A stretch of DNA of 64,000 nucleotides from a virus. The notes beneath the pieces were generated by a model. The model saw only the letters and a program-made list of their open reading frames with translations. It was not told the DNA's origin and did not search any database. This document shows, in pieces, positions 259-16,318 of this stretch (its first letter is position 1; each line of letters starts with the position of its first letter). Where the stretch lies: IMG/VR virus record IMGVR_UViG_3300003886_000002; one strand, given 5' to 3'. The position numbers were made by a program, and so were the translations under genes.

Positions 259-731
259 GTTATTATCCCCTTGTTGAGTGCGTCACGACACGCCGCCCAC
301 ACGGCCTGAGAGTCGGGGAACCCGGCAAGCCCAACTTTCAAAGCCATCTCCTTCGCCACACCCCGTGGCAACACGACCTGCACCGTGTGCGGCGCGTATT
401 CGACCAGGCTGTACACCCGATGAGGGGCATCGTTAGGAAATTGCGCATCCAAACTGTGGGCTCGCACGGCCGCCTCGGCCCCGGTGTCACCGAAGTAGCG
501 TTGGCGGTCGTGCCGGTCGATGATGACCCACGGGGACCTAACCAGTTCAGGCTCAGGCTCAGGTTCGGGTTCAATCCACTGGCCGTCCACCCAACGGGCG
601 ACACGCAAGTCGTCGCGTCCTCCACGACCGACGATCCACTGTCGCGCTTGTGCTGCACTCGTTTGGGTCACCCACGCGCTGCCTGTCTCCCAGTTGACAA
701 CACTCCACACATCATCATCCTCGATACTCAC
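255..731 (-). CDS. hypothetical protein
   Basis: 158-aa ORF, GAGGAG RBS, coupled to neighbours. Confidence 0.65.
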   Translation of the reverse strand: MSIEDDDVWSVVNWETGSAWVTQTSAAQARQWIVGRGGRDDLRVARWVDGQWIEPEPEPEPELVRSPWVIIDRHDRQRYFGDTGAEAAVRAHSLDAQFPNDAPHRVYSLVEYAPHTVQVVLPRGVAKEMALKVGLAGFPDSQAVWAACRDALNKGIIT

Positions 732-898
732 AAGTTCTCCTCTGTTGTATACCCCATCCTGTCTGCGGCGTACTCGATCCCGTGCCTAACTTCCCGCAAA
801 GGGATCACCCGCTTGTCTCCAAACGCTTCTACGAGACGCGCCCATGACCATCCGTGCTCGTGACGGAGATGAGCAGCCAACATCCATTGATTGTTCAC
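728..898 (-). CDS. small hypothetical protein (56 aa, not in ORF track)
   Basis: AGGAGG RBS, GTG start, MNNQWMLAAHLRHEHGWSW..., promoter motif at 928-949. Confidence 0.6.
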   Translation of the reverse strand: MNNQWMLAAHLRHEHGWSWARLVEAFGDKRVIPLREVRHGIEYAADRMGYTTEENL

Positions 899-951: not shown

Positions 952-3078
952 TCAATCTGAATACAAGTCAACTCCAATTCCCACCCTCCCCAGCTCATCC
1001 GCACATTTAGGGACAGTCATACTCCCTGCAAACGGATCTAAGACCACGTCCCCCGCAACAGTAGAGGGCATGATGCAACGAACGGCAAGTTCGTCAGGGA
1101 ACGGGGCCAACCCCTTATCCCCCGACCTGTTAGGAGGAAAACGCCAAACTGTCCCCGTCTGCTCCAAATTGTCGGCGTAGAAACGGTGGCTACGGTCCCT
1201 AGCCAGCATGTAAATGAACTCGTGCTGCGGACGAGGGCGGCGGGCGTGATAAACAGACTCTGGGCGTTCAACCCCCTTGTCCCAAACTATAGTCTGCCGC
1301 AACAACCATCGGCGGTGAGGCCAAATGTCGTCACAGAATCTCGCATCGTCACCAAACATGGCGGTCACCCACCACGGCTGATCGCCTACAGGAGGCCCTA
1401 TCATTGCCTCAACAAGTTTAGGTGGGACATTGCACCACGTCATCTTCTGATAACCAGATTTCCCCTGACGCCACCTAGACTTACCGTCCTTACTGCCCCC
1501 TTTGTTGTAATCGCCTCCTGAACCACCTGAACCGGAGTTACCTGTGAAAAAAGGTGTCCCGTTTCGTCGAGCGAGCCAGGACCCATTTGGAGTAGACGGA
1601 CACCAAACAACCCCGTGATGCGAAACGACTTCAGCATCACATCGTGAAGGTTTGAAGAACTTCTTCGATCCAAGTGTTACTGACCATCCGTCGTGGGCAA
1701 TTCCATTGCGGTCCGGGCGAGGATCAGCGGAACGACGGATCTTATTGAGGGTGGCGTAGCGTCCAGAAAGAAGAGCAGCGATTTGAAACGCCTCAGCACG
1801 GCACCTAGCCTGCTTCGAGTTGTCTGACTGGTTTGACTGAACAAGTGCACCGCCCTGGCTAGTGAGGGTTCCATCAGCCATCATGCTGACATCGACGAAC
1901 AAGTCAAGCTGCTGTTGAGTGAGGCTCAACAAAAAGTCCATGCAAACCACTTTGCTTGGGGCGTGCTGTCGGATTTTATCTGCCGCTGCACCGTTCAACT
2001 TCCAAACAGTCGCTCCATCTTCGCGTCGTTCCTCTCGCCACTGCGGACACACTTCTGCCCCGCCTCTGCTGCGACCCTTCAGTCTTTCAACGGGGGGACC
2101 AAAGAAGCGAGCCATGCATGAACGAATGCGGCTGCAATATTCGTCGTACACTCGGGGCGACTGAGTTATCCAGATGCCACGAGCGCCACCATAGTTACTC
2201 CGATCATTCCCCTCCGTCCAATACCATGCCACCAACTCTACTAACTCATCATTGTGCTTCTTCACTACAGCAGTGTCCGACATGGCGGCACAGACCGGGA
2301 CCCGGCACTCGACGGAGAGCAGCGCATCAGAAGTAACCGTATCCGCAACCCATTCCCGAACCAGCAAACCATGTGCATCCCGAAGCGGGGCTTTCTCGGC
2401 CTGACGCTGCTGTGCCCATGTGCGGGATGTGACAATCTTGGAAATTGTCGTCTGCGTTACCCCGTACTTGTCTGCCAGATCGACCTGCCGGGAACCTTTG
2501 TCATATTCACCCTTAAAGGTCGCCACATCCATCTCTGACAACTTCGCCGACCCGTTCTGCTCTCCTGGTCGTGATGTTCCGATACCGCTCCTGGTCGTCC
2601 GACGCTCAACAAGCCAACGATGATTCAATGTCGTCATTGACGAGTGCCCTCTTACACCTTGTAAGCGAAGCATTGGGCGCTCCATGGCTTCATATACGTG
2701 TAAATCCTCGATAGGACCCCACTCAGACTCGCGGGTTTCTGGGTTAAGGGTTACAGCTTCATCGCCAACGACAACTTCATCAACTCCAAGCCACCCGCGC
2801 TTGGTTAAAATTTCGGTTTCTTCATCGACACATGCTGAATCTCCCACATTTAGCCACATAAGACCATCTGTTTTCAGGACACGCCAGCATTCATCTGCTA
2901 CACGCTTCCACTTCTCTACATACTCCGGTAGAGACTCAACCCCCAATTCGTCGGGAGAGTTTCCATAGCGTCTAAGTCCCCAAAACGGTTATGGGGGCGA
3001 AGTCACAATGCAATCCACAGACTTATCGTCTAATGGAATCTCATCAACCGAGTTTCCTTGCAAAACCTCGATGCTCAC
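952..3078 (-). CDS. N4-C/N6-A DNA methyltransferase with intein; in-frame TAA inside catalytic motif IV
   Basis: Frame from GTG 3078 reads DKSVDCIVTSPP*PFWGLRRYG; then RVLKTDGLMWLNVGDS, APFPDELA, VLDPFAGS; TAA at 2989-2991. Confidence 0.85.
1537..2832 (-). mobile_element. intein (432 aa) with LAGLIDADG-type endonuclease region and HTH-like insert
   Basis: Starts CVDEETEILT, block B TTLNHRW, AWYWTEG and SMMADG motifs, VWCPST, ends FFTGN followed by Ser. Confidence 0.85.
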
Positions 3079-3587
3079 TTCGCCCCCACCTCCTGTCCCC
3101 TGTTGCCCTCAAATGTTTCTGTCATGTACCAACTTTCCGTTTCGCGCATCGCAACGTTTCCTTCACGCAGCATCCTTTTCTGATGGGTTGATGCTGGGGC
3201 AGGCAGACCTGCTAAACGTCGCATAAAGTCGGTTGTCCACCGCTTCCCAACGTTCTTCTTAGTTTTGCTGTACAACAGTGAGTGCAGGTGTGTTAGAGAC
3301 AGCCCCCCGTCTTCTGCAATCTGAACCCACGTTTTACCTGTTCTATGTTTGAGATCCCACATAGCATTCCTGAAAACGTTAAGAGGGATCAGGTCTTTGT
3401 TCTTACGTCGCCTGCCGTCTAGGAGCCCATGTTTTGGTTGATGGTGCAACACGTACCGTCTAGGTTTACCATTTCCGTTGAAACGGACAGGTTCGCTGCA
3501 CCCACACTCGCACTCTGGGGGTTCCCCGTGGGCTGCCAGATACTTCGAGATTTCCCGTTGCCTGTATCGCTCTTGTGCACTACGCAT
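3075..3587 (-). CDS. hypothetical protein with CECGC motif and possible HTH
   Basis: PECECGCSEPV; TWVQIAEDGGLSLTHLHSL. Confidence 0.6.
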   Translation of the reverse strand: MRSAQERYRQREISKYLAAHGEPPECECGCSEPVRFNGNGKPRRYVLHHQPKHGLLDGRRRKNKDLIPLNVFRNAMWDLKHRTGKTWVQIAEDGGLSLTHLHSLLYSKTKKNVGKRWTTDFMRRLAGLPAPASTHQKRMLREGNVAMRETESWYMTETFEGNRGQEVGAK

Positions 3588-4107: not shown

Positions 4108-4611
4108 CTACCGAATCTCAAAGTCGTAGACATAAGTAGGGACTCCCTTGTCAGTCAAAGACCTCTCAACTATCGGTTCAATCATCCCCCAATTAGACCC
4201 ACCAAGCCCGCACCCTATACGTGGCATGTGGACGGAATATGGGATACCTGATGCCGCAACCATACGCTCAACGCTATTGAGACACTGCTCCAAACAGTCG
4301 TAGCGTATGCTGGGCTCTGACTCTCTACGTGTATACCCTGCCTGCGCCACCATGTTACAAACAACCAAGCCTCCGCCTACCGGGACCACCTGTATTTGAC
4401 CGAGTGCGAATGGGACATACCCTACCCCGTCTTTGCTGCAAACCCTGTCGCGATGCCACCTACGGTATGCTGCCTCAGGGGCAGCCCACCTGTCGGAGAG
4501 GGATAGCACAAACCCTCTCCCCCATCCGCCCAAGCTGTTGCACACATGTGCGATGACAGCAGGGCCTTTAGTCTGCGGTTGTGTAGCGTCCCCACTCAGG
4601 TACGTGATCAT
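4108..4611 (-). CDS. macro domain protein (Appr-1-p processing family)
   Basis: GDAT, IAHVCNSLGGWGRGF, MPRIGCGLGG. Confidence 0.9.
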   Translation of the reverse strand: MITYLSGDATQPQTKGPAVIAHVCNSLGGWGRGFVLSLSDRWAAPEAAYRRWHRDRVCSKDGVGYVPFALGQIQVVPVGGGLVVCNMVAQAGYTRRESEPSIRYDCLEQCLNSVERMVAASGIPYSVHMPRIGCGLGGSNWGMIEPIVERSLTDKGVPTYVYDFEIR

Positions 4612-4639: not shown

Positions 4640-5260
4640 TCACCCAAGGAGGCCGTCCTGGCGCTGTTGGCGGGTAACCGCCAAATGGCATTCTCCACAC
4701 AGGGTTTCCAAGCCGTCGAGATGGTGTATGCACCCGTAATCTGCGTGGCGGCCCTTGACAGGCTGTATGTGGTTAACCTCAAGAGAATAGTTCGTTATGA
4801 CGCGTTTAGCGAGCCTCTCGAACTCTGCCATCATGTCCTCATACCCAATGCCTGTTTCCTTATGGAACTCGCGACGTTGCCTCTTCCCCCGTGTCCCCCC
4901 AGCCATGTAACGGAACCGACCGGGGTCCTTTCGCAGTTCCCCACTAACCCATTCCCGAAACGCGAACCGTTGAGGGTGACGATTTACGATTCGACGCATC
5001 CAACCAACAAAATATGTAACATCGTCAGGGACTGTTCCGTCACGGCCACACTTCACACAGCCACCATCACGTTTAATCGCAGCAGAACGAGCGTCCTGCC
5101 AAGAGTGTTGACAAAGGAAGAGTCTGGTGCACTCATAAGAACACCAGCGGCGGGTAGGTTTCCCAAGATCCTTGTTACACCCACAACAGAACCCGGGGCC
5201 GTCCCAATTGTAGAGCGGGCACGACTCGACGACAAGTTGGGTCTGGGACTTGCGGGCCAT
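4640..5260 (-). CDS. HNH endonuclease
   Basis: RDGGCVKCG...LEVNHIQP...LETLCGECH. Confidence 0.8.
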   Translation of the reverse strand: MARKSQTQLVVESCPLYNWDGPGFCCGCNKDLGKPTRRWCSYECTRLFLCQHSWQDARSAAIKRDGGCVKCGRDGTVPDDVTYFVGWMRRIVNRHPQRFAFREWVSGELRKDPGRFRYMAGGTRGKRQRREFHKETGIGYEDMMAEFERLAKRVITNYSLEVNHIQPVKGRHADYGCIHHLDGLETLCGECHLAVTRQQRQDGLLG

Positions 5261-5878: not shown

Positions 5879-6017
5879 ATGTCCTTTCAGAAATCTTACA
5901 TCGCGACTGCCGTCCATCCAGGGCAACACTCCGCTTGTAAAACTCCTCCAGCAATTTGTCTTGGCCGCAGCAGAGACACGTCTTCGTCACCATAGACGAG
6001 TCTTAACACTTTCTCAG

Positions 6018-6090
6018 TACCTCGCAGTGGACTCGAACCACTATCTCCAAATTAAGAGTTTGGCCGTCTAACCAGTTGACATAGCGAGGC
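6018..6090 (-). tRNA. tRNA-Lys(CTT)
   Basis: Cloverleaf, CCAAA-CTCTTAA-TTTGG, GTTCGAGTC; no CCA. Confidence 0.9.
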
Positions 6091-6091
6091 A

Positions 6092-6169
6092 TGGTGAGGG
6101 CGACAGGAATCGAACCTGCGTTTGAACCGGGTAAAAGCCGGATGCAAGACCAACGTTTGCTACACCCTC
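6092..6169 (-). tRNA. tRNA-Lys(TTT)
   Basis: CCGG-CTTTTAC-CCGG, GTTCGATTC, CCA. Confidence 0.85.
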
Positions 6170-6189
6170 AGGGGGCGCGCCTGGGGTAA

Positions 6190-6306
6190 TCAGCGATGTT
6201 TCTTGAAGCCAGAGCGCCCCACGCCAGGTTTCGCTCCGCCAGCATCGTCCGACGCCTTCCGGCACGCCATGAGCTTTCGTTTGGCATTCGCTTCGCTGTT
6301 TCTCAT
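6190..6306 (-). CDS. 38-aa Lys-rich ORF upstream of the tRNA-Lys pair (candidate internal leader)
   Basis: AAGGAGGT RBS; MRNSEANAKRKLMACRKASDDAGGAKPGVGRSGFKKHR. Confidence 0.6.
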   Translation of the reverse strand: MRNSEANAKRKLMACRKASDDAGGAKPGVGRSGFKKHR

Positions 6307-6385
6307 GACGCACCTCCTTGGCGTGTCGGTTGCGAAAATATAGTTTGCTTTAAGTGCCCTAATGGGAACTTTACTTTCTATTGTG

Positions 6386-6459
6386 CTGTAGAGGAGAGAC
6401 TCGAACTCTCAACATCGGCCTTAACAGGACCGCTCCCCTGCCAATAGGGACCCTCTACA
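6386..6459 (-). tRNA. tRNA-Asn(GTT)
   Basis: CGGTC-CTGTTAA-GGCCG, GTTCGAGTC. Confidence 0.85.
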
Positions 6460-6570
6460 CCGTCACAGCGGACCATCAAGAGCAGCAAGTAAAACTTCTC
6501 GATCATTCAACCTTGATGCCATTGTGCAATTGTACCACGATTGACCCGTCGACTGCGGTCCAATTTCCTA

Positions 6571-6646
6571 TGGCTGAGGGGGCGAGAATCGAACTCACGT
6601 GCCCCTGATTCAAAGTCAGGACGGGATGCCAGCAACCCTCCCCTCA
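6571..6646 (-). tRNA. tRNA-Gln(TTG)
   Basis: CCTGA-CTTTGAA-TCAGG, CCA. Confidence 0.9.
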
Positions 6647-6691
6647 ATGCACTCTTCCTTATTCCGGAAGATATCTTCCAGAATAAGGAAC

Positions 6692-7207
6692 CTATGTGAC
6701 TTGATACTGTAAATAAGGAGCCCAAGATTCTTTAGGACTGAACCCGAATACAACCATCAGATCCCCCTTGGGGACAAACGGTTTGACACGAAGAGTCCAT
6801 CTCTCCGCCCCGAAACGCGTTTGAAGCTCTGAAAGCGTCATATCGTCCTTATCTGTGTTGCAACGACGGCATGCCGCTACAACATTCTCCCAACGATGCA
6901 AACCCCCACGAGACCGTGGAACAATATGGTCCACAGTATGTGCCCTCCCGCCACAGTACCCACACTTGTGACTATCCCTACCCAAAACGTTGCGTGTGTT
7001 AAGAGGAATACGTGAACGGTAGGGAACCTTAACGAAACGGTTCAACCTGATTACATCTGGCATAGGGACAGACACAGAAGGGGAACGCACCTCCCCGTTC
7101 CCGCGCTCAACTATCTCTGCCATGTCTTGCAACACAAGGACAACCGCGCGCCTCCACGTAATAACCCTTAACGGCTCCCATGTAGCATTCAGCAACAAAG
7201 TAGACAT
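6692..7207 (-). CDS. HNH endonuclease (McrA-like), inside the tRNA operon
   Basis: LLLNATWEPL, RDSHKCGYCG, TVDHIVPRSRGG, WENVVAACRRCN. Confidence 0.9.
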   Translation of the reverse strand: MSTLLLNATWEPLRVITWRRAVVLVLQDMAEIVERGNGEVRSPSVSVPMPDVIRLNRFVKVPYRSRIPLNTRNVLGRDSHKCGYCGGRAHTVDHIVPRSRGGLHRWENVVAACRRCNTDKDDMTLSELQTRFGAERWTLRVKPFVPKGDLMVVFGFSPKESWAPYLQYQVT

Positions 7208-7271
7208 TCCACACCTCCCTATACTTTCGTCCAACTACAGAAACCTGAGCTTCCCATCTTCCCTATCCTCC

Positions 7272-7343
7272 GGGTGGCTGAAGGGACTCGAACCCTCGCT
7301 AGCAGGGACACAACCTGCTGTGCTGCCACTACACTACAGCCAC
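7272..7343 (-). tRNA. tRNA-His(GTG)
   Basis: GCAGG-TTGTGTC-CCTGC, GTTCGAGTC. Confidence 0.85.
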
Positions 7344-7366
7344 ATCCTATAGCGAATCTCTTCGCT

Positions 7367-7445
7367 TGGCTGGGAAGGTAGGAATCGAACCTACGCATCT
7401 CCTGATCCAGAATCAGGCGGGTTTGCCAACGTCCCCCACTCCCCA
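7367..7445 (-). tRNA. tRNA-Gln(CTG)
   Basis: CCTGA-TTCTGGA-TCAGG, CCA. Confidence 0.9.
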
Positions 7446-7557
7446 TCACGACAGATAAAAGAACGAATCGTCAATACACTTTCCCGTAGACACCCCACAC
7501 CCCGGTTACTAAACTGCTGGGGATAGATGCCCACGAAACAATCTATTCTATTATCAG

Positions 7558-7631
7558 TCGGGTGTGTGAGAATCGAACTCACCTGATGTCCGCGCCCCAA
7601 ACGCGGCGTCCCTCCTTGAGACCGACACCCG
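7558..7631 (-). tRNA. tRNA-Pro(TGG)
   Basis: CCGCG-TTTGGGG-CGCGG; CGG/CCGA acceptor. Confidence 0.85.
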
Positions 7632-7716
7632 CTATGTGCAAACCATTACCACCTATCCATCATCTACCATTATAGGCACATCTACCACAGATCAACCACA
7701 CCTATTCTATTGCCTG

Positions 7717-7796
7717 TGCCCGTGGGGGGAGTCGAACCCCCATGCCGAAGCGCTCGTCCTTGAAGCGAGTGTGTATACCAGTTCCACCACACGGGC
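7717..7796 (-). tRNA. tRNA-Leu(CAA)
   Basis: CTCGC-TTCAAGG-ACGAG, long variable arm. Confidence 0.85.
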
Positions 7797-7890
7797 ATGT
7801 GAGCATACGGTTACAAACATCCTTCCTGCTGGTCTGCCTATGTGACATGTACAGAGCCCTAGATTTTCACAAAAGTTTTCATGCATGCTG

Positions 7891-7976
7891 TGCCCCCTGT
7901 GGGATTCGAACCCACACCGGGAATTCTCCCACGCGGGTCTAAACCGCGCCTCTCGACCAAATTGGAGTAAAGGGGC
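7891..7976 (-). tRNA. tRNA-Leu(TAG)
   Basis: CGCGG-TTTAGAC-CCGCG, long variable arm. Confidence 0.85.
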
Positions 7977-8007
7977 TTTGAACATCCTTTCCTACTATCT
8001 ATTTACG

Positions 8008-8081
8008 TGCTCCCCCCGGGACTCGAACCCGGAATACCTCAGGCTTAAACCGAGTGCCTTTACCAATTAGGCCAGGGGAGC
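8008..8081 (-). tRNA. tRNA-Leu(TAA), short variable loop
   Basis: CTCGG-TTTAAGC-CTGAG; variable region about 5 nt. Confidence 0.8.
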
Positions 8082-8152
8082 AGACATGCTGCACGCCACT
8101 GCAAAAGAGAAGTGCCTAGGGTTGGGCCTAAACCCACATGGCTACAAGCAGA

Positions 8153-8263
8153 CTAGATGTGCAGCGGTAACTGCTCGGCATCGAACGGTCGAGGCTTGTC
8201 ACGCCCCAAGCGTTGCCGATTCTTATGGGCATGTGCCCCTGTGAGTCGCAGCCGCTTCATCAT
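8153..8263 (-). CDS. leader peptide of tRNA operon A (Leu/Pro/Gln/His/Asn/Lys)
   Basis: MMKRLRLTGAHAHKNRQRLGRDKPRPFDAEQLPLHI; ATG 9 nt after TATGAT. Confidence 0.7.
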   Translation of the reverse strand: MMKRLRLTGAHAHKNRQRLGRDKPRPFDAEQLPLHI

Positions 8264-8272
8264 GGTGACCCT

Positions 8273-8300
8273 ATCATATCAGGTGGGCATGACACGTCAA
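8273..8300 (-). promoter_or_regulatory. promoter of tRNA operon A
   Basis: TTGACG-N16-TATGAT with TGTCATGCCCA motif in the spacer. Confidence 0.75.
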
Positions 8301-8304
8301 GTGG

Positions 8305-9048
8305 TTATCTGCCCCCACCTGGGATATGGAACCTGCTACCCATGACATCTACAGCCCGGGGGTTCGAATCCACTAGGAGGGAGTGCCGTCCAAGACGCAT
8401 AGCGGCATCCCCTGTCGTTCCGCTTCCAGCCATCGGATCGAGGACCAGATCACCAGGGTCGGTGAATGCTGTTATGAGACGGTTCAGCAACGCTACAGGC
8501 TTCTGAGTGGAATAGCCTGTCCTCTCAGAAGCAGAGGTAGACAGAAACGGGATCTGCCACCAATCATTCATTATCCGACCATCCGGGTGAAACCCTTTAC
8601 GGTCACCGTAATCGTGAGGATACGGTTCTCTAAGGGTATTGAACCTGTACAGATCCGATTTCGAATACACCAGCAGGTCATCATGCTTTCGACTGAAATG
8701 CCGTTTAGACGCACCCCCGGAGGCGTAACACCAAACAATGCTGTTGACAAACCTGTTCTCTCCGAACACGTCATCCAACTCTATGCGTATCCTGTGGGAC
8801 GCATGCCAATCACAGTGCACGACGATACAGGCCCTATCATCCATAACTCTTTGGCAAGCAGACAAAACACTGTTAATCCATATGCAATAATCTTGCAAAG
8901 TTCCCCGCCGATCGTCGAAATCAACGAGCCGTTTACCAGACCTAAAGGGCGGGTCGACGTAAACAAACTGCACCTGACCATCCCCAACATGGCTCAAAGC
9001 GTCGATACAGTCTCCGCACACCATGGAAGGCATAAACTCATTAGACAT
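8305..9048 (-). CDS. DNA adenine/N4-cytosine methyltransferase (beta class)
   Basis: YVDPPF, YSTQKPVALL, VLDPMAGSGTT. Confidence 0.9.
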   Translation of the reverse strand: MSNEFMPSMVCGDCIDALSHVGDGQVQFVYVDPPFRSGKRLVDFDDRRGTLQDYCIWINSVLSACQRVMDDRACIVVHCDWHASHRIRIELDDVFGENRFVNSIVWCYASGGASKRHFSRKHDDLLVYSKSDLYRFNTLREPYPHDYGDRKGFHPDGRIMNDWWQIPFLSTSASERTGYSTQKPVALLNRLITAFTDPGDLVLDPMAGSGTTGDAAMRLGRHSLLVDSNPRAVDVMGSRFHIPGGGR

Positions 9049-9073
9049 CAACGCTGCACCCAAACCTTCGCAC

Positions 9074-10255
9074 TCAAGTCCCCTTGTAGTTGAGGACGGC
9101 CTCTAGGGTATGGACAACATCAACCAGGTCAGATTGGGCGTCCATAACAGTCGCAATGTCCTTGTACGCCCCAGGGTGCTCATCTACCAGTTTGGCAGCC
9201 CGCCCGCGGTCCCACGAACGACCCCCCATGGCGGCAGTCAAACTATCTGCATCAAACATCTTTTTCGCTTGCCTGCGCGACATTTTCCGGCCCGCCCCAT
9301 GGCTACATGAGTGATAGGCAGCATCATTGCCTAAACCACGGACAACATATGTAGATGTGCCCATCGACCCTGGGATGACCCCAAGATCCCCCGACCGTGC
9401 ACGGATAGCCCCTTTACGCGTTAACCAGACAGACTTTCCGTGATGCTGTTCCCGGACCGTATAGTTGTGGTGGCAATTGATTCGGCTCTCCTGCAAACCC
9501 ACGCTGACCCCAAGTTCTTCTGCAATGCACCCCAGCACTGCGTCCATCATCTCTTCACGACTCAACAGGGCATAATCCTGTGCCCACAGCATGTCAGATA
9601 TGTAAGCATCGAACTCTAAAGAGCCCTCCACAAGGTATGCAAGATCAGGGTTAGGGATGCTGATGAACCACTCCTGCATCAGATGCTTAGCACGATCAAT
9701 ATGGAAACGAGCCAACTGATTCCCAATTCCGCGGCTACCCGAATGCAAAACTACCCAAACTCCGCCACCCTCGTCTATGCAAACCTCTACGAAATGGTTG
9801 CCTGAGCCGAGTGACCCGAACTGATCGAATACCTTACATGTCTGCCTGTCGTCGAACTCTGTGAACGAATTCGTCTCAGTCCAAAACTTGTGGAACCGTG
9901 TCGACGGCGCTTTCCCGTCATGACCCTTCCCAACCCCCGCGGGGATACTCTGCTCAATCCTTGAGTGAAGCCCCCCAAGGTCATCGGGAAGTTCATCGCC
10001 GCTAATGTTTAGCTTTGCTGCACACATTCCACATCCGATGTCCACCCCGATAGCCGCTGGGATGATTGCCCCACGGGTAGGGATAACTGACCCGATAGTG
10101 GACCCAAGCCCAAAGTGTGCGTCAGGCATCAAAGCTATGTGCCCCTGTACGAACGGCATCAGGGCTGTCTGTGCAGCTTGGGCACATGTGTTATGGTCGA
10201 TGCCCTCAACCCCCCAGGCGAGGACACCTTCTGCTGCCTTCGTTGGTTTTGACAT
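9074..10255 (-). CDS. rtcB: RtcB RNA ligase
   Basis: MPDAHFG, GVDIGCGM, GSGNHF, HSGSRG, HHNY, SCSHGAGR, DEHPGAYK. Confidence 0.97.
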   Translation of the reverse strand: MSKPTKAAEGVLAWGVEGIDHNTCAQAAQTALMPFVQGHIALMPDAHFGLGSTIGSVIPTRGAIIPAAIGVDIGCGMCAAKLNISGDELPDDLGGLHSRIEQSIPAGVGKGHDGKAPSTRFHKFWTETNSFTEFDDRQTCKVFDQFGSLGSGNHFVEVCIDEGGGVWVVLHSGSRGIGNQLARFHIDRAKHLMQEWFISIPNPDLAYLVEGSLEFDAYISDMLWAQDYALLSREEMMDAVLGCIAEELGVSVGLQESRINCHHNYTVREQHHGKSVWLTRKGAIRARSGDLGVIPGSMGTSTYVVRGLGNDAAYHSCSHGAGRKMSRRQAKKMFDADSLTAAMGGRSWDRGRAAKLVDEHPGAYKDIATVMDAQSDLVDVVHTLEAVLNYKGT

Positions 10256-10293
10256 GGCAGCAACCTACCACGTAGACATGACGCTACAGTCCA

Positions 10294-11061
10294 TCAGGAC
10301 CTTAGTCGTGCAATCTCTTCATCTAGCGCATCAGTATCCAAAATCTTCCAAGCCAAAGACCCCGTTTTCGAGTGATTCAAACCAAGGATAGATGTGTCCC
10401 CTCGCTTGCCAACTAGCCGATGGTGATAGTGGGCATGGACTGCAAGCCTAGGGTTAAGTTCATCTACTACCCCATCCAAGGCGTGACGATTAGCCATCGA
10501 CTGATGCTCTAGATTGTACGACAGATTGAACTGTCGCAATATTGCAGACAGATCACTGTAATTAGGGGAATCGTGCGTCAGCAGGACATCGACACCGCCG
10601 CCCCCGTTGCGTAAAGCACGCTCTACGTCCCCATAAGTGATTGTCTCCTGAGGCCACCACGAGATGAATGGGATACGGTGGCTGACGTCAACAGAGAACG
10701 CCCCCCCTAGAGACATGAAGCGCACCCCACCCCACTCCCACACTAAGCCGCGTGGGAGATAAGTAATGTGGCTATGCAACTGCACCATAGAAGGAGCATC
10801 CACCTTCGCCCCCAAGAATTCCATTACCTCAAAATTCTCATGGTTCCCATCCAACCAGTAAAGAGGCATATCTGCCTCAGAAAACCACCTGTTAAGGTTC
10901 CCCAAAGTCCTGTTGACATCTTCCTGGTTACACGACCATATAAACCCGAAGTCCCCCAGTTGCACCACTGCGTCAGCACGGACCCTCTTCGCGTAACGAA
11001 TTACCTTTGATTGCATCCACGCGAAGTCGCCGTGTGTGTCCCCAAGTAGCAACAATCTCAT
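10294..11061 (-). CDS. calcineurin-like metallophosphoesterase
   Basis: GDTHG, QLGDFG, DGNHEN, LTHDSP, HAHYH. Confidence 0.9.
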   Translation of the reverse strand: MRLLLLGDTHGDFAWMQSKVIRYAKRVRADAVVQLGDFGFIWSCNQEDVNRTLGNLNRWFSEADMPLYWLDGNHENFEVMEFLGAKVDAPSMVQLHSHITYLPRGLVWEWGGVRFMSLGGAFSVDVSHRIPFISWWPQETITYGDVERALRNGGGGVDVLLTHDSPNYSDLSAILRQFNLSYNLEHQSMANRHALDGVVDELNPRLAVHAHYHHRLVGKRGDTSILGLNHSKTGSLAWKILDTDALDEEIARLRS

Positions 11062-11093
11062 GGCAGACACATTATCATACAGGGTGGACAAGA

Positions 11094-11657
11094 CTAAATG
11101 TGTTGGAACAGCAGACCTGTATAGGCGCCAGTGCTTACCACTAGTGGCTGTCCAGGCAGCAGTGCCTGCTCTGCGATTGCAGCCACATCATCCACATCCA
11201 AACCCACTTGGAAAGTGTTGCGCTTCGCTGACGAAATCCACCCGTCGCCATAGCATTCCCACCGTCCACGTAACGCAGCAGATGCAACGTCCCCCCTGGT
11301 GCGCACAGCCACAAATACGTCACCCCCAAGATACGCAGACTCTCTCAAAACCCCCACCCTCTCTATGGGTGACGCGATCACATTGAGAACATAGACACAG
11401 GCAACAAGATCGAACCGCTGTATAGAACACTGTCCGTACCCATAAGACCCGTATGGATCGAAGCCCTCTGACTCAAACCCATTATCCCTATAGAACTCTA
11501 CATCTGTGCCGCGCCCGCATCCGTAATCCAGAACAGATCCCCAATGCTGCCCGCCACACAACCCCAGCAGATCGCGCGCAGGACGCGACGGCGTTCGCCT
11601 AGCAATAGCAGTTAAATGTGATGCTGCCCCAGGGAAACTACGCTCACCGGATCTCAT
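11094..11657 (-). CDS. class I SAM-dependent methyltransferase
   Basis: VLDYGCGRG, FDLVACVYVLNVI. Confidence 0.8.
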   Translation of the reverse strand: MRSGERSFPGAASHLTAIARRTPSRPARDLLGLCGGQHWGSVLDYGCGRGTDVEFYRDNGFESEGFDPYGSYGYGQCSIQRFDLVACVYVLNVIASPIERVGVLRESAYLGGDVFVAVRTRGDVASAALRGRWECYGDGWISSAKRNTFQVGLDVDDVAAIAEQALLPGQPLVVSTGAYTGLLFQHI

Positions 11658-12372
11658 CGATCAAACCGAATCGGAGTGCGTCATCAGATGACAGCCACCA
11701 ATCCTTGCGACGCCACCTATTCTTTAGCTTCGCCTTAGAAAGGTTAGACCGCTCAGCAAAGATGTCCAAGATTCTTTCCTGAACCATCTTAACCCACTCA
11801 ACAATATCCTCCACCTCCCCGATTTTCCCTGATGTACCAAAACTCGCCTCATGTATCATGAGCCAAGATTCTGCCCCCATGACACGGTGGTCTCCTGCCT
11901 GTAGTAAAATGCCTGCCATCGACGCGGCATACCCAATGGATGATGTAGTCACATTGAATCCGGCAGAACGCATTGCCTGTATGCAGTCAAAGAGGGCCAT
12001 CCCCGGGACGATAGTACCGCCCGGCGAATTGAATTGGACTTCAATAGGGTTTCCCTCAGGGCTCTCAATAGTGCGACGCCACTTTGTAAGCTGCTCAATA
12101 CACTTATTCACTGATCCAGATTCCACTGCACCAGTAAAGGCATAGAACAAGTGGTGTTCATCGTCGGCAAGTTCTCTACGTCGCTTATGGCGCTCCCGAT
12201 CAAGCACAATCTGAGCTGTCTGAATGTCTATCCTGGCTTCCTCCGACTCAAGATCTACCCTAACCCGTTCAGCGTTAAACTTTGCTGCCTCCGCGTCGAG
12301 ACAACCTGCTGCGGCTTTACGCCTAGATTTCTCAACGTCTATAAGCTCAGCAGGAATGTGTTCTTCCTCCAT
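11644..12372 (-). CDS. clpP: ClpP-family protease with N-terminal coiled coil
   Basis: FNSPGG, GYAASMAG, LMIHE, DWWLSSDDALRFGLIDEI. Confidence 0.9.
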   Translation of the reverse strand: MEEEHIPAELIDVEKSRRKAAAGCLDAEAAKFNAERVRVDLESEEARIDIQTAQIVLDRERHKRRRELADDEHHLFYAFTGAVESGSVNKCIEQLTKWRRTIESPEGNPIEVQFNSPGGTIVPGMALFDCIQAMRSAGFNVTTSSIGYAASMAGILLQAGDHRVMGAESWLMIHEASFGTSGKIGEVEDIVEWVKMVQERILDIFAERSNLSKAKLKNRWRRKDWWLSSDDALRFGLIDEIR

Positions 12373-12457
12373 ACACGCTCCTTCCCTTACACGACTATAT
12401 CAAAGTGGGCATCGACTAAAATCCGTGGCACCTTTACCGCACATACCTTGAGGGGTC

Positions 12458-12531
12458 GGAGCCTCCGGGGAGAATCGAACTCACCGCTTCCATCGTACCA
12501 AGATGGCGTGCCACCACAACACTTCAGAGGC
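12458..12531 (-). tRNA. tRNA-Thr(GGT)
   Basis: CCATC-TTGGTAC-GATGG. Confidence 0.85.
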
Positions 12532-12532
12532 T

Positions 12533-12603
12533 TGGAGCCGTACCGGGGAGTCGGACCCCGCCTTGTCAGGTACAAACCGACAGTCCTGCCACCAGGGCAC
12601 GGC
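12533..12603 (-). tRNA. tRNA-Thr(TGT), atypical D arm
   Basis: TGTCGG-TTTGTAC-CTGACA, CCA; no 8/9 linker. Confidence 0.75.
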
Positions 12604-12604
12604 T

Positions 12605-12679
12605 TGGAGCACCCACTCCGACTTGAACGGAGTTCCGTCGCTTACGAGGCGACTGCATCACCATCAATGCTTTAGGTGC
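12605..12679 (-). tRNA. tRNA-Thr(CGT)
   Basis: GTCGC-CTCGTAA-GCGAC, CCA. Confidence 0.9.
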
Positions 12680-12691
12680 ATATCTCCTTCG

Positions 12692-12763
12692 TGCGCAGAG
12701 GAGGAATCGAACCCCAAAGGCGGTGGAATAAGCACCGCTGTGGCAACCAACCACACTCCACGC
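12692..12763 (-). tRNA. tRNA-Ile(TAT)
   Basis: GCGGTG-CTTATTC-CACCGC, GTTCGATTC. Confidence 0.7.
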
Positions 12764-12776
12764 ATATCATTGCCTG

Positions 12777-12847
12777 TAGCGCCGGAGGGAATCGGACCCT
12801 CATCGCCCGAATATGAGTCGAGCACTCTACCATTGAGCTACGGCGCA
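12777..12847 (-). tRNA. tRNA-Met/Ile2(CAT)
   Basis: CTCGA-CTCATAT-TCGGG; T1:T72 mismatch. Confidence 0.8.
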
Positions 12848-12890
12848 GCGCAGATACCGTACCTGCTGAGGTACAGGTCGATCATATCAG

Positions 12891-12963
12891 TTGCCAGCCA
12901 GAGACTCGAACTCTGCACGGCCGCGATATCAGCACGGCACCATCACCCGATGGTCCACTGGCA
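12891..12963 (-). tRNA. tRNA-Ile(GAT)
   Basis: CCGTG-CTGATAT-CGCGG. Confidence 0.85.
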
Positions 12964-12970
12964 CTGGTTG

Positions 12971-13045
12971 AGCACCGGGTGAGATTTGAACTCACGACTA
13001 TACGGATTTGCAGTCCGTTCCTTTGGGCCGCTCAGGCACCGGTGC
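12971..13045 (-). tRNA. tRNA-Cys(GCA)
   Basis: ACGGA-CTGCAAA-TCCGT, U73. Confidence 0.9.
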
Positions 13046-13058
13046 TTACTTCGTTACG

Positions 13059-13131
13059 TACCCGAAGAGGGATTCGAACCCCCGTCACCTCGGTGTAAAC
13101 GAGGAGCTAGGCCAGACTCAGCTATTCGGGC
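13059..13131 (-). tRNA. tRNA-Val(TAC)
   Basis: CCTCG-TTTACAC-CGAGG. Confidence 0.9.
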
Positions 13132-13138
13132 TCGTTAT

Positions 13139-13213
13139 TGGTGGCCCCCGTGGGATTCGAACCCACCTCTCTTGCTCTTCAAACAAACGCTAATCCACCT
13201 CAGCTAGAGGGCC
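13139..13213 (-). tRNA. tRNA-Phe(GAA)
   Basis: TTTGT-TTGAAGA-GCAAG, CCA. Confidence 0.85.
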
Positions 13214-13253
13214 ATGGGCATCAGCCTTTAGGCATCTGCGATCTACTCCCGTA

Positions 13254-13328
13254 TGGAGCGAGTGCGGAGAGTCGAACTCCGTTTTCCGACTTGGAAGGAC
13301 GGCGCATCACCACCAATGCTTCACTCGC
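13254..13328 (-). tRNA. tRNA-Gly(TCC)
   Basis: CCGTC-CTTCCAA-GTCGG, GCG/CGC-T-CCA. Confidence 0.9.
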
Positions 13329-13394
13329 TAGATCTCTTTTGTTGTCAAGTGAAAGGCCCCTGTGAGAACCAGGGCACATTCTGTGCTGTTTCCG

Positions 13395-13467
13395 TGGAGC
13401 ATCGGGGCTTTGATCCCCGCACCTCCTGTTTGCAAAACAGGTGCTCTTCCAAATGAGCTAATGCCCC
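13395..13467 (-). tRNA. tRNA-Ala(TGC)
   Basis: CCTGT-TTTGCAA-ACAGG, G3:U70. Confidence 0.9.
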
Positions 13468-13545
13468 ATGGGGTGGGGACGGTTGCATTCAGCAGAACGC
13501 CTACTAACCGTCCCCACCCACCCAGCCCATCGCCTCTGGCAAGGT

Positions 13546-13620
13546 TGGGGGCGGGAGGGAGAATCGAACTCCCGGAACCTGGCTTATGAGGCCAAGTGGG
13601 CTACCAGCAGCCTTCCCGCA
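13546..13620 (-). tRNA. tRNA-Met(CAT), possibly initiator-like
   Basis: TTGGC-CTCATAA-GCCAG; 1:72 mismatch; CCA. Confidence 0.8.
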
Positions 13621-13638
13621 CGATCCTGGAACCTGAGG

Positions 13639-13731
13639 TCAGTCTATGCAGACTGTGCCTGTCCCTAAGGCGCCACCACGCGTAAACGTGGCAGCGGTGA
13701 TGATTCGTGCCGCTCGCTGTACTGTTCTCAT
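13639..13731 (-). CDS. leader peptide of tRNA operon B (Met/Ala/Gly/Phe/Val/Cys/Ile/Thr)
   Basis: GAGGAGG RBS; MRTVQRAARIITAATFTRGGALGTGTVCID. Confidence 0.8.
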   Translation of the reverse strand: MRTVQRAARIITAATFTRGGALGTGTVCID

Positions 13732-13769
13732 TGCGTTGGGCCTCCTCTCAGGTCCAGACCTGTGAAAGC

Positions 13770-13797
13770 ATCATAGCATAGATGCATGCCAGGTCAA
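13770..13797 (-). promoter_or_regulatory. promoter of tRNA operon B
   Basis: TTGACC-N16-TATGAT with extended TGn -10. Confidence 0.75.
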
Positions 13798-13804
13798 CCC
13801 CATA

Positions 13805-14488
13805 CTAGATGTTGTTACCTAAACGAATATCAACCAATAAGTCGTTGACCGCCCCCACGTTGGGGACTTCTGGCAAAAGGGAGTCAATGTTGCCTAGGCG
13901 GTCCAACAACTCCATAATCATTTGTTCGTAGTGCCCCACATTTGATACAGCAAGTTCCCCAGCCTCGAAACATGCATCTGCCTCTTCAGGCTCCAAACGC
14001 ACCTTTAACTGCCCCTCACGGAGAATATGCGCCCCCTGGATGGCCAACCGGTAACAGTGACGGCCGTGCTTCTCCGTTCGTTTCCTGAGATCCGATGAGA
14101 AGTCCCCACGCTGTTTAAGCCGATTCAGTTGCTGAAAGGCATACCCACCGTAGGTGTTACGGACCCGCTGTGACAAGAACAGGCTACGTGCATCGATAAG
14201 AACGTCTCCAATCTGTGTTCTAAGCACATATTCTGGGAGCCACAACAACTCGCTTATCGTTGGGTTAGCAGCCAAGGCAAGACGGCAGAACTTCCCCAAC
14301 TCGTGTATCGTACGATCCGGGGATCTCTGAACATAAGACTGATCCGTTTTGGATGCACCATTCAAACCCAAGACAGCATCTAGGGGTTCTACATAGATCC
14401 CAAGGAAATCTTGGTCACTATATGGGGTCGCGAGCCCATATGCACGAGACCCTACCATCCCCTCTAAAACAACATTGTGCCCACTCAT
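13805..14488 (-). CDS. Pol-beta-family nucleotidyltransferase (YcgL/RlaP-like)
   Basis: VGSRAYGLATPYSDQDFLGIY, ELGKFCRLALAANPTISELLW. Confidence 0.85.
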   Translation of the reverse strand: MSGHNVVLEGMVGSRAYGLATPYSDQDFLGIYVEPLDAVLGLNGASKTDQSYVQRSPDRTIHELGKFCRLALAANPTISELLWLPEYVLRTQIGDVLIDARSLFLSQRVRNTYGGYAFQQLNRLKQRGDFSSDLRKRTEKHGRHCYRLAIQGAHILREGQLKVRLEPEEADACFEAGELAVSNVGHYEQMIMELLDRLGNIDSLLPEVPNVGAVNDLLVDIRLGNNI

Positions 14489-14519
14489 CCGCCAAACCTA
14501 CCATACAGACATGACGCAT

Positions 14520-14654
14520 CTAAGCAGGCTGAGGGACAGGTTCCCTTACAGGTGGGGTTGTGGGCTGCGGTGATGGTTCCACACGCGCAGGCTCACGAAT
14601 AGGGGCGGGAACCACCAGGGGTTCTTCCCGTGTTGGCTGACCGATCTTACCCAT
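14520..14654 (-). CDS. 44-aa Pro-rich peptide (not in ORF track)
   Basis: MGKIGQPTREEPLVVPAPIREPARVEPSPQPTTPPVREPVPQPA, overlaps upstream stop, GGAG RBS. Confidence 0.6.
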   Translation of the reverse strand: MGKIGQPTREEPLVVPAPIREPARVEPSPQPTTPPVREPVPQPA

Positions 14655-15459
14655 TATCAATCTCCTCTAATTCATTTAGATACTGTAACATCTGTTTCCG
14701 CCGCAGCAAATGCATCCGTGCAGTTACCAGTAATAGGACTAGGATGACCAAGTTCCATACTGCTGGCAGCCAATCTGCTTTTCCGAGTAGAGACGATAAC
14801 CTTGACCAAGATTCCCAAGATAAACCGATGAATAGAATTCCCCACATCAAATCAAGACGGGTATCCCCACGGACTACCTTGATAGCGTCGCTTAAATCGT
14901 CACCAGATAGGTTCACCAAAGGGATATAAGAGTCACGTACCATCCGGGTGTGCTGCAACAGAGCCTCGCGTTCTGTTATAGGCGCTTCCTGGACAGGAAC
15001 CCCATAGGTTTTCCCCAAACGTTCGTGTCGTGTCAGTTTGATAGGACGATCCCTAAAGAATGCAAGACTCCTAATCTGCGCGTGCTGTGCACGATACCCC
15101 TTATCGTGTTCAAACACATTCCCGAACAACAATATCTGCCCGAACACGAGCCCATTCTCAAATGTCGCCGGGTCGAAATCTGCGAAGATGTCTGCAATGT
15201 CCTTATACCCATAGATCCCACACCCGTAAATGCCCTGTTTGCACTCTCTAGATGGAGATGCATGATCTGAATATGGGTCGGTCCCAGAGATTGCCACACA
15301 TTTTGCAGTCAGATACGTGGTATTCGGCCACACTGTGTTATTCATCGACAACAATACAGGAACATCCGCGTCATCAAACACACCCCACACCCGCCACGCA
15401 ACAATAGGCTCTGCCACGTCAGGGGTGAGGGCGTCGTCAAGGATAATCCCGATTGCCAT
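14647..15459 (-). CDS. hypothetical protein with C-terminal TM helices; paralog of next gene
   Basis: EPIVAWRVW, GCGIYGY, GNVFEHDKGYRAQHA. Confidence 0.75.
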   Translation of the reverse strand: MAIGIILDDALTPDVAEPIVAWRVWGVFDDADVPVLLSMNNTVWPNTTYLTAKCVAISGTDPYSDHASPSRECKQGIYGCGIYGYKDIADIFADFDPATFENGLVFGQILLFGNVFEHDKGYRAQHAQIRSLAFFRDRPIKLTRHERLGKTYGVPVQEAPITEREALLQHTRMVRDSYIPLVNLSGDDLSDAIKVVRGDTRLDLMWGILFIGLSWESWSRLSSLLGKADWLPAVWNLVILVLLLVTARMHLLRRKQMLQYLNELEEIDNG

Positions 15460-15494
15460 AGGGGAGATGCTAACAGGTGGGCATGACCGATGTT

Positions 15495-16115
15495 TCAGAG
15501 ATCTCTGATCGGGTCGGCTGTGTGAGAAGAATCTATCTTGTTTCCCCCTGGTTCGAGCACACGTGTGGTCGCGTTCCACTGTCCTCGTTCCCAAACCTTA
15601 CGTGCATCATGGATTAGCCCAACGCCATAAGCTTTAGAGAGTGCCCGCGCTACCTCTTCTACGCGCGACCCCAGTGTCCAAGCAAAAGCAGAAGGGTACG
15701 CATACTGTGCACGGAAACCGTACTCGTGTTCATAGACGTTCCCCCACATTAAGACCTCACCCCAAATCCTACCCCTCAAGTGCATGGGGTCGTTGTTCAT
15801 TGCGGCCATAGGCGGATCTCTGTAGGCATAAATGCCACAACCAAACCCATAGTGTGCACGCGAATCAGGTGATGGGCATTCCCCACAGTCTTTACCCTGC
15901 GTGCGACTGTCGATTGACGGGATGAGGCTATTTGCGCATACAGCGACAACATCTTTACCCGGCTCCCATATTTCTATATCAAGTTTCGACGACACACGTA
16001 CAGAAGGGGAAACATGGCTGTCCTGTAAACCTTTTACGTTCCAACCCCTATAGCCGACAATCGGCTCAATGACGTCAGGGATCAGAAAATCTAGTGGCTC
16101 TTCACCGAAGTCCAT
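15495..16115 (-). CDS. hypothetical protein; paralog of previous gene
   Basis: EPIVGYRGW, GCGIYAY, GNVYEHEYGFRAQYA; start trimmed to exclude tRNAs. Confidence 0.75.
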   Translation of the reverse strand: MDFGEEPLDFLIPDVIEPIVGYRGWNVKGLQDSHVSPSVRVSSKLDIEIWEPGKDVVAVCANSLIPSIDSRTQGKDCGECPSPDSRAHYGFGCGIYAYRDPPMAAMNNDPMHLRGRIWGEVLMWGNVYEHEYGFRAQYAYPSAFAWTLGSRVEEVARALSKAYGVGLIHDARKVWERGQWNATTRVLEPGGNKIDSSHTADPIRDL

Positions 16116-16170
16116 GTGGGACAGGTTACCTGATGGGGATGACACCACTGCCAATCTGATCCTATCTAAG

Positions 16171-16241
16171 TGCCCCGCCGGGGAGTCGAACCCGCGAACG
16201 GTAGAGGTAGAAACCCCACCTGAGCTTCCGGCTCGCGAGGC
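16171..16241 (-). tRNA. tRNA-Arg(TCT), atypical
   Basis: GGTGGGG-TTTCTAC-CTCTACC; no 8/9 linker. Confidence 0.75.
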
Positions 16242-16242
16242 G

Positions 16243-16314: not shown

Positions 16315-16318
16315 ATTG

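Follow-up and report, generated by a model that had tools for sequence, protein, structure and literature searches.

The 64,000-nucleotide (nt) viral DNA of IMG/VR record IMGVR_UViG_3300003886_000002 (the window, taken at its full length) encodes on its minus strand an intein-bearing N6/N4 DNA methyltransferase whose gene carries a TAA at codon 30 (2989–2991), where the catalytic motif reads GTG ACT TCG CCC CCA TAA CCG TTT TGG GGA CTT AGA (V-T-S-P-P-stop-P-F-W-G-L-R). A preliminary description of this DNA had recognized CCA-TAA-CCG within a methyltransferase catalytic motif, had noted that the roughly 2 kilobases (kb) that follow, intein included, are open, and had proposed a programmed hop of peptidyl-tRNA-Pro over the stop. 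Both observations hold: the product matches PF01555 (N6_N4_Mtase; 4e-22, 79.7 bits with a cut-off of 26.7) and phrog_67 (DNA methyltransferase; 3e-37), and the frame downstream of the TAA has 678 open codons up to the stop at 949–951, against 31 and 50 stops in the two alternative frames of that stretch. The TAA is part of a 6-nt insert, and CCA-TAA-CCG belongs to a class of stop-first mini-inserts that recur in phage methyltransferase genes at this specific site. We define the class as inserts of 4 or 6 nt within the S-P-P-[YF]-x-G-L codons that begin with an in-frame stop and whose last codon is similar to the one preceding the stop, in a gene that is otherwise open; the window gene, with TAA CCG after CCA and its long open frame beyond, falls within this definition.

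Apart from the insert the window gene looks intact, with its start signals, intein ends, and C-terminal motifs all present (Table 1). The GTG start overlaps the stop of the upstream open reading frame (ORF; 3075–3587) as GTGA. Motif I (DPFAGSM) is near the C-terminus and follows the catalytic motif, which we take to be motif IV, an order that we take to be that of the beta class. Motif IV ([SDN]-P-P-[YF]) is contiguous only if 6 nt are skipped, the DNA itself encoding S-P-P-stop-P-F. The intein is predicted to be a Hint-type protein splicing element: it begins at C83, contains a TLNH segment that we take to be the T-x-x-H of intein block B, ends with FFTGN followed by S515, and is located within a conserved motif of the host protein, where relatives lacking an intein join GD[ST]A directly to SGSGG. 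It matches phrog_6156 (endonuclease; 2.5e-6) as well as helix-turn-helix (HTH) families, and intein relatives were found in actinophage portal, terminase, and methylase genes. Two further uninterrupted PF01555-type genes are present in the window, at 8305–9063 (minus strand, with VDPPF) and at 44099–45505 (minus strand, with TSPPYFALRSY; 468 amino acids (aa), with a large internal insertion). The window is phage-like in its content, with 29 transfer RNA (tRNA) genes, one transfer-messenger RNA (tmRNA), and portal, terminase, protease, and RtcB-like ligase genes. Megablast comparison of the window with the phage collection returned no near match, and IMG/VR has no exact copy of a 23-mer that adjoins the site.

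Table 1. Features of the interrupted methyltransferase gene and associated elements in the window.
Feature	Coordinates	Strand	Basis
Intein-bearing N6/N4 (beta-class) DNA methyltransferase gene, one internal TAA	949..3078 (GTG start 3078-3076, stop 949-951)	-	PF01555, phrog_67, open frame
Shine-Dalgarno-like GGAGGTG, 8 nt 5' of the GTG start	3087..3093	-	sequence
CCA, second Pro codon of S-P-P, proposed take-off codon	2992..2994	-	sequence
6-nt insert TAA CCG (equivalent registers CCATAA, ATAACC)	2986..2991	-	DNA and protein alignments
CCG, proposed landing codon	2986-2988	-	sequence
N-extein remainder, FWGLRRYG...MWLNVGDSA	2833..2985	-	65-81% identity to P0271-P0275
Predicted intein, residues 83-514, CVDEETEIL ... 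TTLNH ... FFTGN then Ser, with HTH and endonuclease-like segments	1537..2832	-	shared site and ends in P0003-P0008
C-extein, SGSGGSGGDYN ... DPFAGSMTVPK ... GVDLYSD	952..1536	-	alignments
HNH endonuclease ORF, upstream of the methyltransferase start by three genes (~1.6 kb)	4640..5260	-	phrog_144 2e-8; PF01844 3e-4
Phage tRNA-Pro(UGG), 7-nt anticodon loop	7557..7631	-	ARAGORN

Alignment with the nearest DNA relatives (L001–L004) shows a clean 6-nt gap at this position in all four, L003 for example having TCT CCT CCC TTC TGG; protein identity to the window gene is 77% for L003, 74% for L002 and L004, and 49% for L001. Protein alignments give the corresponding 2-residue gap against P0003–P0008, P0001, P0271–P0276, and the window paralogue at 44099–45505. 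The five closest intein-less relatives are 68–79% identical to the window gene in the C-extein and 65–81% in the N-extein, and three of them (P0272, P0273, and P0274) encode SPPFWGLR, with SPSYWGLR in the other two (P0271 and P0275). The SPPFWGLR predicted for a hop product is exactly the ancestral motif. The spacing from PP[YF] to R-x-Y is three residues in 96 of the 98 family members that match the pattern (among 155 family sequences scanned), and a product with two extra residues, for which readthrough would give a spacing of five, would therefore be atypical. The preliminary description had anticipated that a hop would restore this motif at normal length, as these comparisons bear out, and that a stop read as a residue would leave a longer product; it would indeed be longer, by two residues and not by the one supposed, the 6 nt being two codons relative to the relatives. 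Two protein entries on contigs of 113 kb and 158 kb are identical to the window product, and in each the gene call starts only downstream of the TAA (635 and 664 aa), which suggests that two assemblies carry the stop. The search of the protein collection returned no full-length near-identical version of the window protein.

Matched codons flank 4 of the 70 in-frame stops of this kind in the window, which is approximately the number expected by chance, and the other three sit in frames without a coding appearance. What is unusual about the site is its position inside a conserved catalytic motif, not its matched flanking codons, and had the window been the only evidence, we would have favoured an inactivating insertion of recent date.

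Scans of IMG/VR for inserts of 4 and 6 nt, which covered V-T-S-P...L-R-D-Y-G contexts, identified seven distinct genes beyond the window with a 6-nt insert in motif IV and 20 with a 4-nt insert. The pattern T-S-P-P-(TRR)-P-[YF]-W-G has two matches, both in methyltransferase genes and both with stops: CCT TGA CCT TAT, whose 42.7-kb genome has direct terminal repeats and is rated 100% complete, and CCA TAG CCA TAC, from a 68.8-kb provirus. The two genes are otherwise complete (557 and 484 aa, respectively) and are only 43% identical to each other. When any codon was allowed in the slot there were 14 matches, but only the same two, stops in both, are in a methyltransferase context, the other 12 being in short frames or non-methyltransferase sequence. 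A search of 596 Gb of bacterial and archaeal genomes with S-P-P-stop-P-[YF]-W-G gave 12 matches, none of them in a methyltransferase context, and S-P-P-stop-P-Y-[FY]-G has no match in IMG/VR.

The position of the interruptions was also evident in a sample of the family comprising 80 loci (~71 distinct), of which 76 are uninterrupted and four interrupted. All four interruptions sit in motif IV; they are those of the CCT TGA CCT and CCA TAG CCA genes just described, of L076, which reads GGC CTT TAG CTG AGA (G-L-stop-L-R) with matched Leu codons, and of L064, which reads TAC TAA C TGG, such that a 4-nt insert follows the catalytic Tyr and the gene resumes in the +1 frame. No breaks elsewhere in the gene were seen among the 76 uninterrupted members; 73 of these are open to a motif-I-like DPFxG, and the remaining three (L040, L072, and L101) are cut by the locus end or are not resolved by the pattern. 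A scan for any 6-nt insert between V-T-S-P and L-R-D-Y-G gave 11 matches, four by chance and seven in methyltransferase context, the latter representing five distinct sites: SPP TGA CCT Y, SPP TAA CTT YW, SPP TAA CTT YF, SPPY TAG TTC W, and SPPYW TGA TGA G. Inserts consisting only of sense codons were found neither among these five nor among the two methyltransferase matches of the any-codon scan.

The 4-nt inserts are more numerous and more uniform in position. Of 23 matches, 21 are in methyltransferase context (L127–L137 and L140–L149, with the site at ~1501–1542), and in all 21 the insert directly follows the catalytic Tyr codon of S-P-P-Y (after Y-Y in one instance) and begins with a stop (TGAC in 16, TGAT in four, and TAAC in one). 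There are 20–94 open codons before the insert and 147–504+ after it, in the +1 frame in every case, with at least 277 in 20 of the 21; the shortest, L129, ends at 147 at the end of its contig. Five of the downstream ORFs were checked and match PF01555 through to the end of the profile.

The interrupted genes are diverse: clustering of 26 of them gave 25 groups at 90% identity and 21 at 60%, and the median pairwise identity is 46% (range 32–99.7%). Around the inserts the genes differ from one another at synonymous positions, so the inserts are not recent copies from one donor. In one clade of five members, all with TGAC, the proportion of synonymous differences (pS) is 0.23–0.83 and all five are open, with a raw ratio of nonsynonymous to synonymous proportions (pN/pS) of 0.40–0.64 that is inflated by variable regions and saturation. 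In L121, which is 37% GC, the methyltransferase frame has no stops across an 807-nt antisense LAGLIDADG ORF, where the other frames have 7 and 33. This diversity, the open but diverged clade, and the open frame in L121 argue that selection acts on the reading frame before the stop and on that after it, as it would not in a dead gene.

The codon preceding the stop and the last inserted codon resemble each other to differing degrees. In the eight 6-nt cases the pairs are CCA/CCG (the window), CCT/CCT, CCA/CCA, CTT/CTG, CCT/CTT, CCA/CTT, TAT/TTC, and TGG/TGA, with the first base shared in all eight (p ~1.5e-5, or 6e-5 if TAACTT is counted once) and the first two bases shared in five. For the 4-nt inserts, the resume codon is preceded by GAC, GAT, or AAC, whose second and third bases agree with those of the Tyr codon. 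The fourth base, directly after the stop, is C in the window insert, in seven of the nine sites first tallied (the eight 6-nt cases and the TAAC of L064), and in 17 of the 21 4-nt matches. A hop onto the look-alike codon would in each case restore the canonical motif and is the most economical single reading of these patterns. Alternatively, the look-alike codons could reflect how the inserts arise, TGAT making an exact duplication (ATTG ATTG) and CCATAG CCATAC coming close to one, and the 4-nt class could equally use a prfB-like +1 shift (UAY UGA C) that adds Asp or Asn, in place of a +4 hop.

The presence of analogous stop-first inserts in at least 27 further distinct and otherwise intact genes argues for a selected, probably recoded, site and against a random lesion. 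Our leading reading, at about even odds, is that the TAA belongs to a selected recoding site that is productively bypassed, with a hop of peptidyl-tRNA-Pro from CCA to CCG giving SPPFWGLR. A ribosome with peptidyl-tRNA-Pro on CCA would stall at the slow Pro-Pro-UAA-C stop, the tRNA would re-pair on CCG 6 nt downstream, and translation would resume at TTT to yield the canonical T-S-P-P-F-W-G-L-R and then the intein-containing remainder. CCA UAA CCG consists of two codons readable by one tRNA and parted by a stop, a UGG anticodon reading CCG as well as CCA, and the tRNA-Pro(UGG) that had been placed near 7558 is indeed encoded there (Table 1). Such an arrangement might allow a conserved DNA target to contain foreign bases, conferring for example immunity to a homing endonuclease as the T4 gene 60 gap does against MobA, or else it might throttle expression. 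We infer the ribosomal bypass, its efficiency, and its purpose from the arrangement of the sequences. The wider proposal is put forward tentatively: that phage beta-class methyltransferases bear 4- and 6-nt stop-first inserts that ribosomes bypass, that these would be the first natural stop-hops and miniature versions of the T4 gene 60 gap, breaking a conserved target (probably that of a neighbouring homing endonuclease) with the normal enzyme kept, and that the CCA-TAA-CCG of the window would be a member.

Several observations weigh against a productive hop. The insert is present in none of the 16 near relatives examined, so that the exact site has no conservation of its own, and among these the intein-bearing relatives P0003–P0008 share the intein site and lack the insert in six of six; the intein's own endonuclease is therefore not tied to the insert. 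The flanking codons are poorly matched in three of the eight 6-nt cases (CCT/CTT, CCA/CTT, and TAT/TTC), with one or two positions alike. A hop in the 4-nt class needs a first-position mismatch (UAY to GAC, GAU, or AAC), failing which a +1 frameshift is required, so that a single hop mechanism common to both classes is not established. Both release factors recognize UAA, which as a rule terminates translation efficiently. No stimulatory element was found: a CCCCC/GGGG hairpin around the TAA (81 nt folded) is no better than that of shuffled sequences (z = -1.04, with 25 of 200 shuffles folding as well), and the hallmarks of T4 gene 60, a gap of ~50 nt and a take-off stem-loop, are not seen here, the gap being 6 nt and the fold unremarkable. 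Motif I of the window gene has GSM (~1017–1037) where all near relatives have GSG, and the window has two other intact PF01555 genes, so that loss of the interrupted gene might be tolerated. There is no nearby HNH gene in 20 of the 29 interrupted records. Hopping over stops where stimulatory signals are lacking occurs at a low level in the experiments described in the relevant part of bioRxiv 10.1101/2024.12.09.627546. The programmed hop of the preliminary description thus stands in its geometry and gains comparative support from the recurrent class, with the poorly matched codons and the possible +1 frameshift of the 4-nt form counting against it; the 6-nt insert for which it had looked to close homologs is absent from these, the analogous stop-first inserts being in the at least 27 distant genes.

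The alternative of most consequence, although we regard it as doubtful, is that the insert is real and perhaps selected but that ribosomes terminate at the TAA and no active enzyme is made. Selection might then favour, for example, destruction of a homing-endonuclease or other nuclease target in the conserved motif IV DNA, or loss of methylation in the face of methylation-dependent restriction, and the frame would have stayed long and open either because the event is recent or because the intein endonuclease, expressed via re-initiation, is under weak selection. The absence of the insert from near relatives, the unusual GSM in motif I, the two intact paralogous methyltransferases, and the gene calls that begin after the stop on both contigs are all in keeping with this, as is the HNH enrichment near interrupted genes described below, which fits immunity with no need of translation. 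A simple loss, however, would be expected anywhere in the gene and in any form, yet all 4 interruptions of the 80-locus sample and all 28 matches of the two insert scans that are in methyltransferase context are stop-first and in motif IV. The deep divergence of the interrupted genes with both halves open and conserved, the synonymous differences in the flanks that exclude recent copying from one donor, and the L121 frame that is open through its antisense coding sequence likewise argue against it. Re-initiation signals are also weak, the first in-frame start past the TAA being a TTG 15 codons on that has no Shine-Dalgarno-like sequence. An inactivating 6-nt insertion had been offered in the preliminary description as an alternative; the insert is indeed of 6 nt and its absence from near relatives fits, whereas the recurrence in distant intact genes argues against a random lesion. 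The Gly-to-Met change in motif I needs GGN to ATG, at least two base changes, and is unique within the clade of the window gene, but it is not diagnostic of decay, as 19 of the 155 family sequences (~12%) are non-G at this position, with Met in two distant ones (P0193 and P0234). Amino-acid changes found only in the window gene are mostly conservative, and its root-to-tip length is 0.318 as compared with 0.21–0.29 for its clade; with synonymous sites saturated relative to the nearest DNA relatives and a branch only modestly longer, neither dates the insert.

Two other explanations have considerably less to commend them. Readthrough of the UAA by a near-cognate tRNA, such as the phage Gln(UUG), Lys(UUU), or Tyr(GUA), would give S-P-P-x-P-F-W-G-L-R, lengthening the catalytic loop by two residues, and is improbable. 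UAA-C after Pro-Pro would be expected to terminate slowly, judging from the portion of PMC3082878 that deals with stops after Pro, and the phage supplies 29 tRNAs; none of the 29, however, is a suppressor, and TAA is not reassigned, as it closes nine of 60 long open frames in the window. Sense-only 6-nt variants are missing from both scans (0/5 distinct sites and 0/2), the near-universal canonical spacing makes a loop longer by two look untolerated, and readthrough cannot rescue the commoner 4-nt class because that class is out of frame. Still more improbable is an assembly artefact or minority variant, in which the 6 nt would be absent from most genomes of the phage population. An assembly error had been raised earlier, and the window is a metagenome-type record; but the two contigs of 113 kb and 158 kb encode an identical protein with the gene call in both only after the stop, and the same kind of insert is present in ~27 unrelated assemblies, including genomes with direct terminal repeats rated 100% complete. 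A 6-nt non-repetitive insertion would also be unusual as an assembler or Illumina error.

Other origins and roles of the insert were considered and set aside. The 13-mer around the insert is present only once in the window, which gives no indication of a templated origin. Tandem duplication fits the TGAT variants (ATTG ATTG) and L061 (CCATAG CCATAC) but fails for TGAC before TTC or TAY codons and for the window insert. T+TGA+C makes a -35-like TTGAC, but no properly spaced -10-like hexamer was seen by eye (no formal test was applied), and the window insert has no TTGAC, so an internal promoter was discarded. Reassignment of TAA in the window and an unusual tRNA-Pro were likewise ruled out, the tRNA-Pro anticodon loop being of normal size.

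The inserts may be connected with homing endonucleases, for which the evidence is suggestive. An HNH gene (PF01844) is inside, adjoining, or within ~1.6 kb of the methyltransferase gene in 9 of 29 interrupted records as compared with 2 of 50 uninterrupted controls (Fisher p = 0.0015; p = 0.010 counting only adjacent or internal HNH genes), with the control distances derived by hand from coordinates and the controls checked for HNH only, not for LAGLIDADG genes or inteins. The HNH gene is antisense inside the gene in G001, directly downstream in G002, directly upstream in G058, and 1.35 kb upstream in G004; the further cases are the window (Table 1) and 4 of the 20 4-nt records, in each of which it is 100–260 nt upstream of motif IV. 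The LAGLIDADG endonuclease ORF of L121 (1603–2409, minus strand; PF14528, 5e-12) is antisense within the methyltransferase frame (1501–3039, plus strand), as if both strands were kept coding, and the antisense HNH ORF inside the G001 methyltransferase gene (L007, 2063–2527) is a similar arrangement.

One close parallel is with synthetic constructs. The 1987 work of Weiss, Dunn, Atkins, and Gesteland, as described in the 2016 review by Atkins and colleagues (PMC5009743) and in bioRxiv 10.1101/2024.12.09.627546, gave stop-hops in E. coli in which 9 nt specify one residue, and the passage of the 2016 review concerned with natural hopping over in-frame stops says that "no occurences are known". 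The synthetic examples have matched codons around an in-frame stop, and CCA UAA CCG is exactly of that form, as is L076 (CTT TAG CTG); they differ in being laboratory constructs of low efficiency, whereas the inserts reported here are in natural phage genes, in one conserved motif, and in many lineages, some with codons that are only partly matched. Stops that follow Pro are slow, shift-prone, and sites of tmRNA tagging according to the section of PMC3082878 that treats them.

A natural parallel is T4 gene 60, where, as set out in the part of bioRxiv 10.1101/2022.08.31.505936 that concerns MobA, the 50-nt gap keeps MobA from nicking its own genome and lets foreign DNA occupy a conserved region with the protein unchanged. 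There too a non-coding insert interrupts a phage gene in one of its conserved parts, the take-off codon being followed by a stop, the landing codon being similar, and the rest of the gene being intact, and endonuclease genes are beside or inside several of the interrupted methyltransferase genes. The differences are in the gap (50 nt, as against 4 or 6 nt here), in the take-off stem-loop, of which no significant counterpart is seen here, in the nascent-peptide signal of the T4 bypass, none having been identified here, where no search aimed at it was made, and in the host gene and the endonucleases (here HNH, LAGLIDADG, and intein). In 20 of the 29 interrupted records there is no HNH nearby, and motif IV DNA is a possible target of these enzymes. 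The terminase of Streptomyces phage phiHau3, in the portion of PMC10732093 that describes it, also has short non-coding blocks (7–10 nt) at highly conserved junctions of an actinophage gene; there bypass rather than frameshift was argued from conserved protein length, and the junction peptide was recovered by mass spectrometry in E. coli. The slow codon in that system is a rare sense UUA, in 3 of 100 terminase genes, rather than a stop codon in a methyltransferase catalytic motif.

The 4-nt relatives also resemble the 'shifty stop' of prfB (CUU UGA C; the pertinent parts of PMC3711429 and PMC3082878), in that a +1 shift on UAY UGA C reads GAC next. However, re-pairing of a P-site tRNA on UAY is poor after a +1 shift, inspection of the sequence upstream showed no Shine-Dalgarno stimulator, and the product would gain Asp or Asn after the catalytic Tyr; the window insert is in frame, and a +1 shift therefore cannot rescue it. 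In the part of PMC3711429 that deals with the prfB frameshift motif, methyltransferases are mentioned only as phase-variable type III genes, with nothing at motif IV, and the literature searched, which did not reach most subscription journals, gave no account of inserts with stops in the catalytic motif of a methyltransferase.

Recurrent stop-bearing mini-inserts in dozens of divergent phage genes would provide a natural test bed for stop hopping, with junction peptides of SPPFWGLR expected from the window gene and SPPYWGLR from the 4-nt class if hopped, as distinct from products with one or two additional residues. Gene callers truncate such methyltransferases or treat them as pseudogenes, and the inserts would bear on phage-host restriction biology and on the co-evolution of homing endonucleases with their host genes. 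In L117 a Lar-type restriction alleviation gene (505–783, plus strand; PF14354, 4e-9) is located ~0.7 kb upstream of the interrupted methyltransferase gene.

Elsewhere in the window, the 29 tRNA genes and the tmRNA (21133–21548, with the tag AEDNTEAPESDALWAEFDACESVLV) occupy 6017–22554. Near this array are an RtcB-like tRNA ligase gene (9074–10255), an RNA ligase-like gene (18471–19256), and a nucleotidyltransferase gene (13805–14488), together with a tRNA nucleotidyltransferase gene (52133–52846), and the tRNA array and RNA repair genes together resemble a module for translation and tRNA repair that is large by phage standards. Three ORFs of 1060–1213 aa (24297–27479, 27791–31417, and 31410–35051, all on the minus strand) have terminase, portal, and protease matches over part of their length and may carry inteins or fusions. 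Upstream of the methyltransferase gene, the ORF at 4108–4611 (minus strand, 167 aa) matches phrog_335 ('phosphatase') and has no Pfam match; with its GDATQP...AHVCN..GGWGRGF segments it looks like a macro domain. The in-frame TAG at 4108–4110 was considered as the mark of a second broken gene, but it is instead an ordinary boundary between this macro-domain-like gene and the next.

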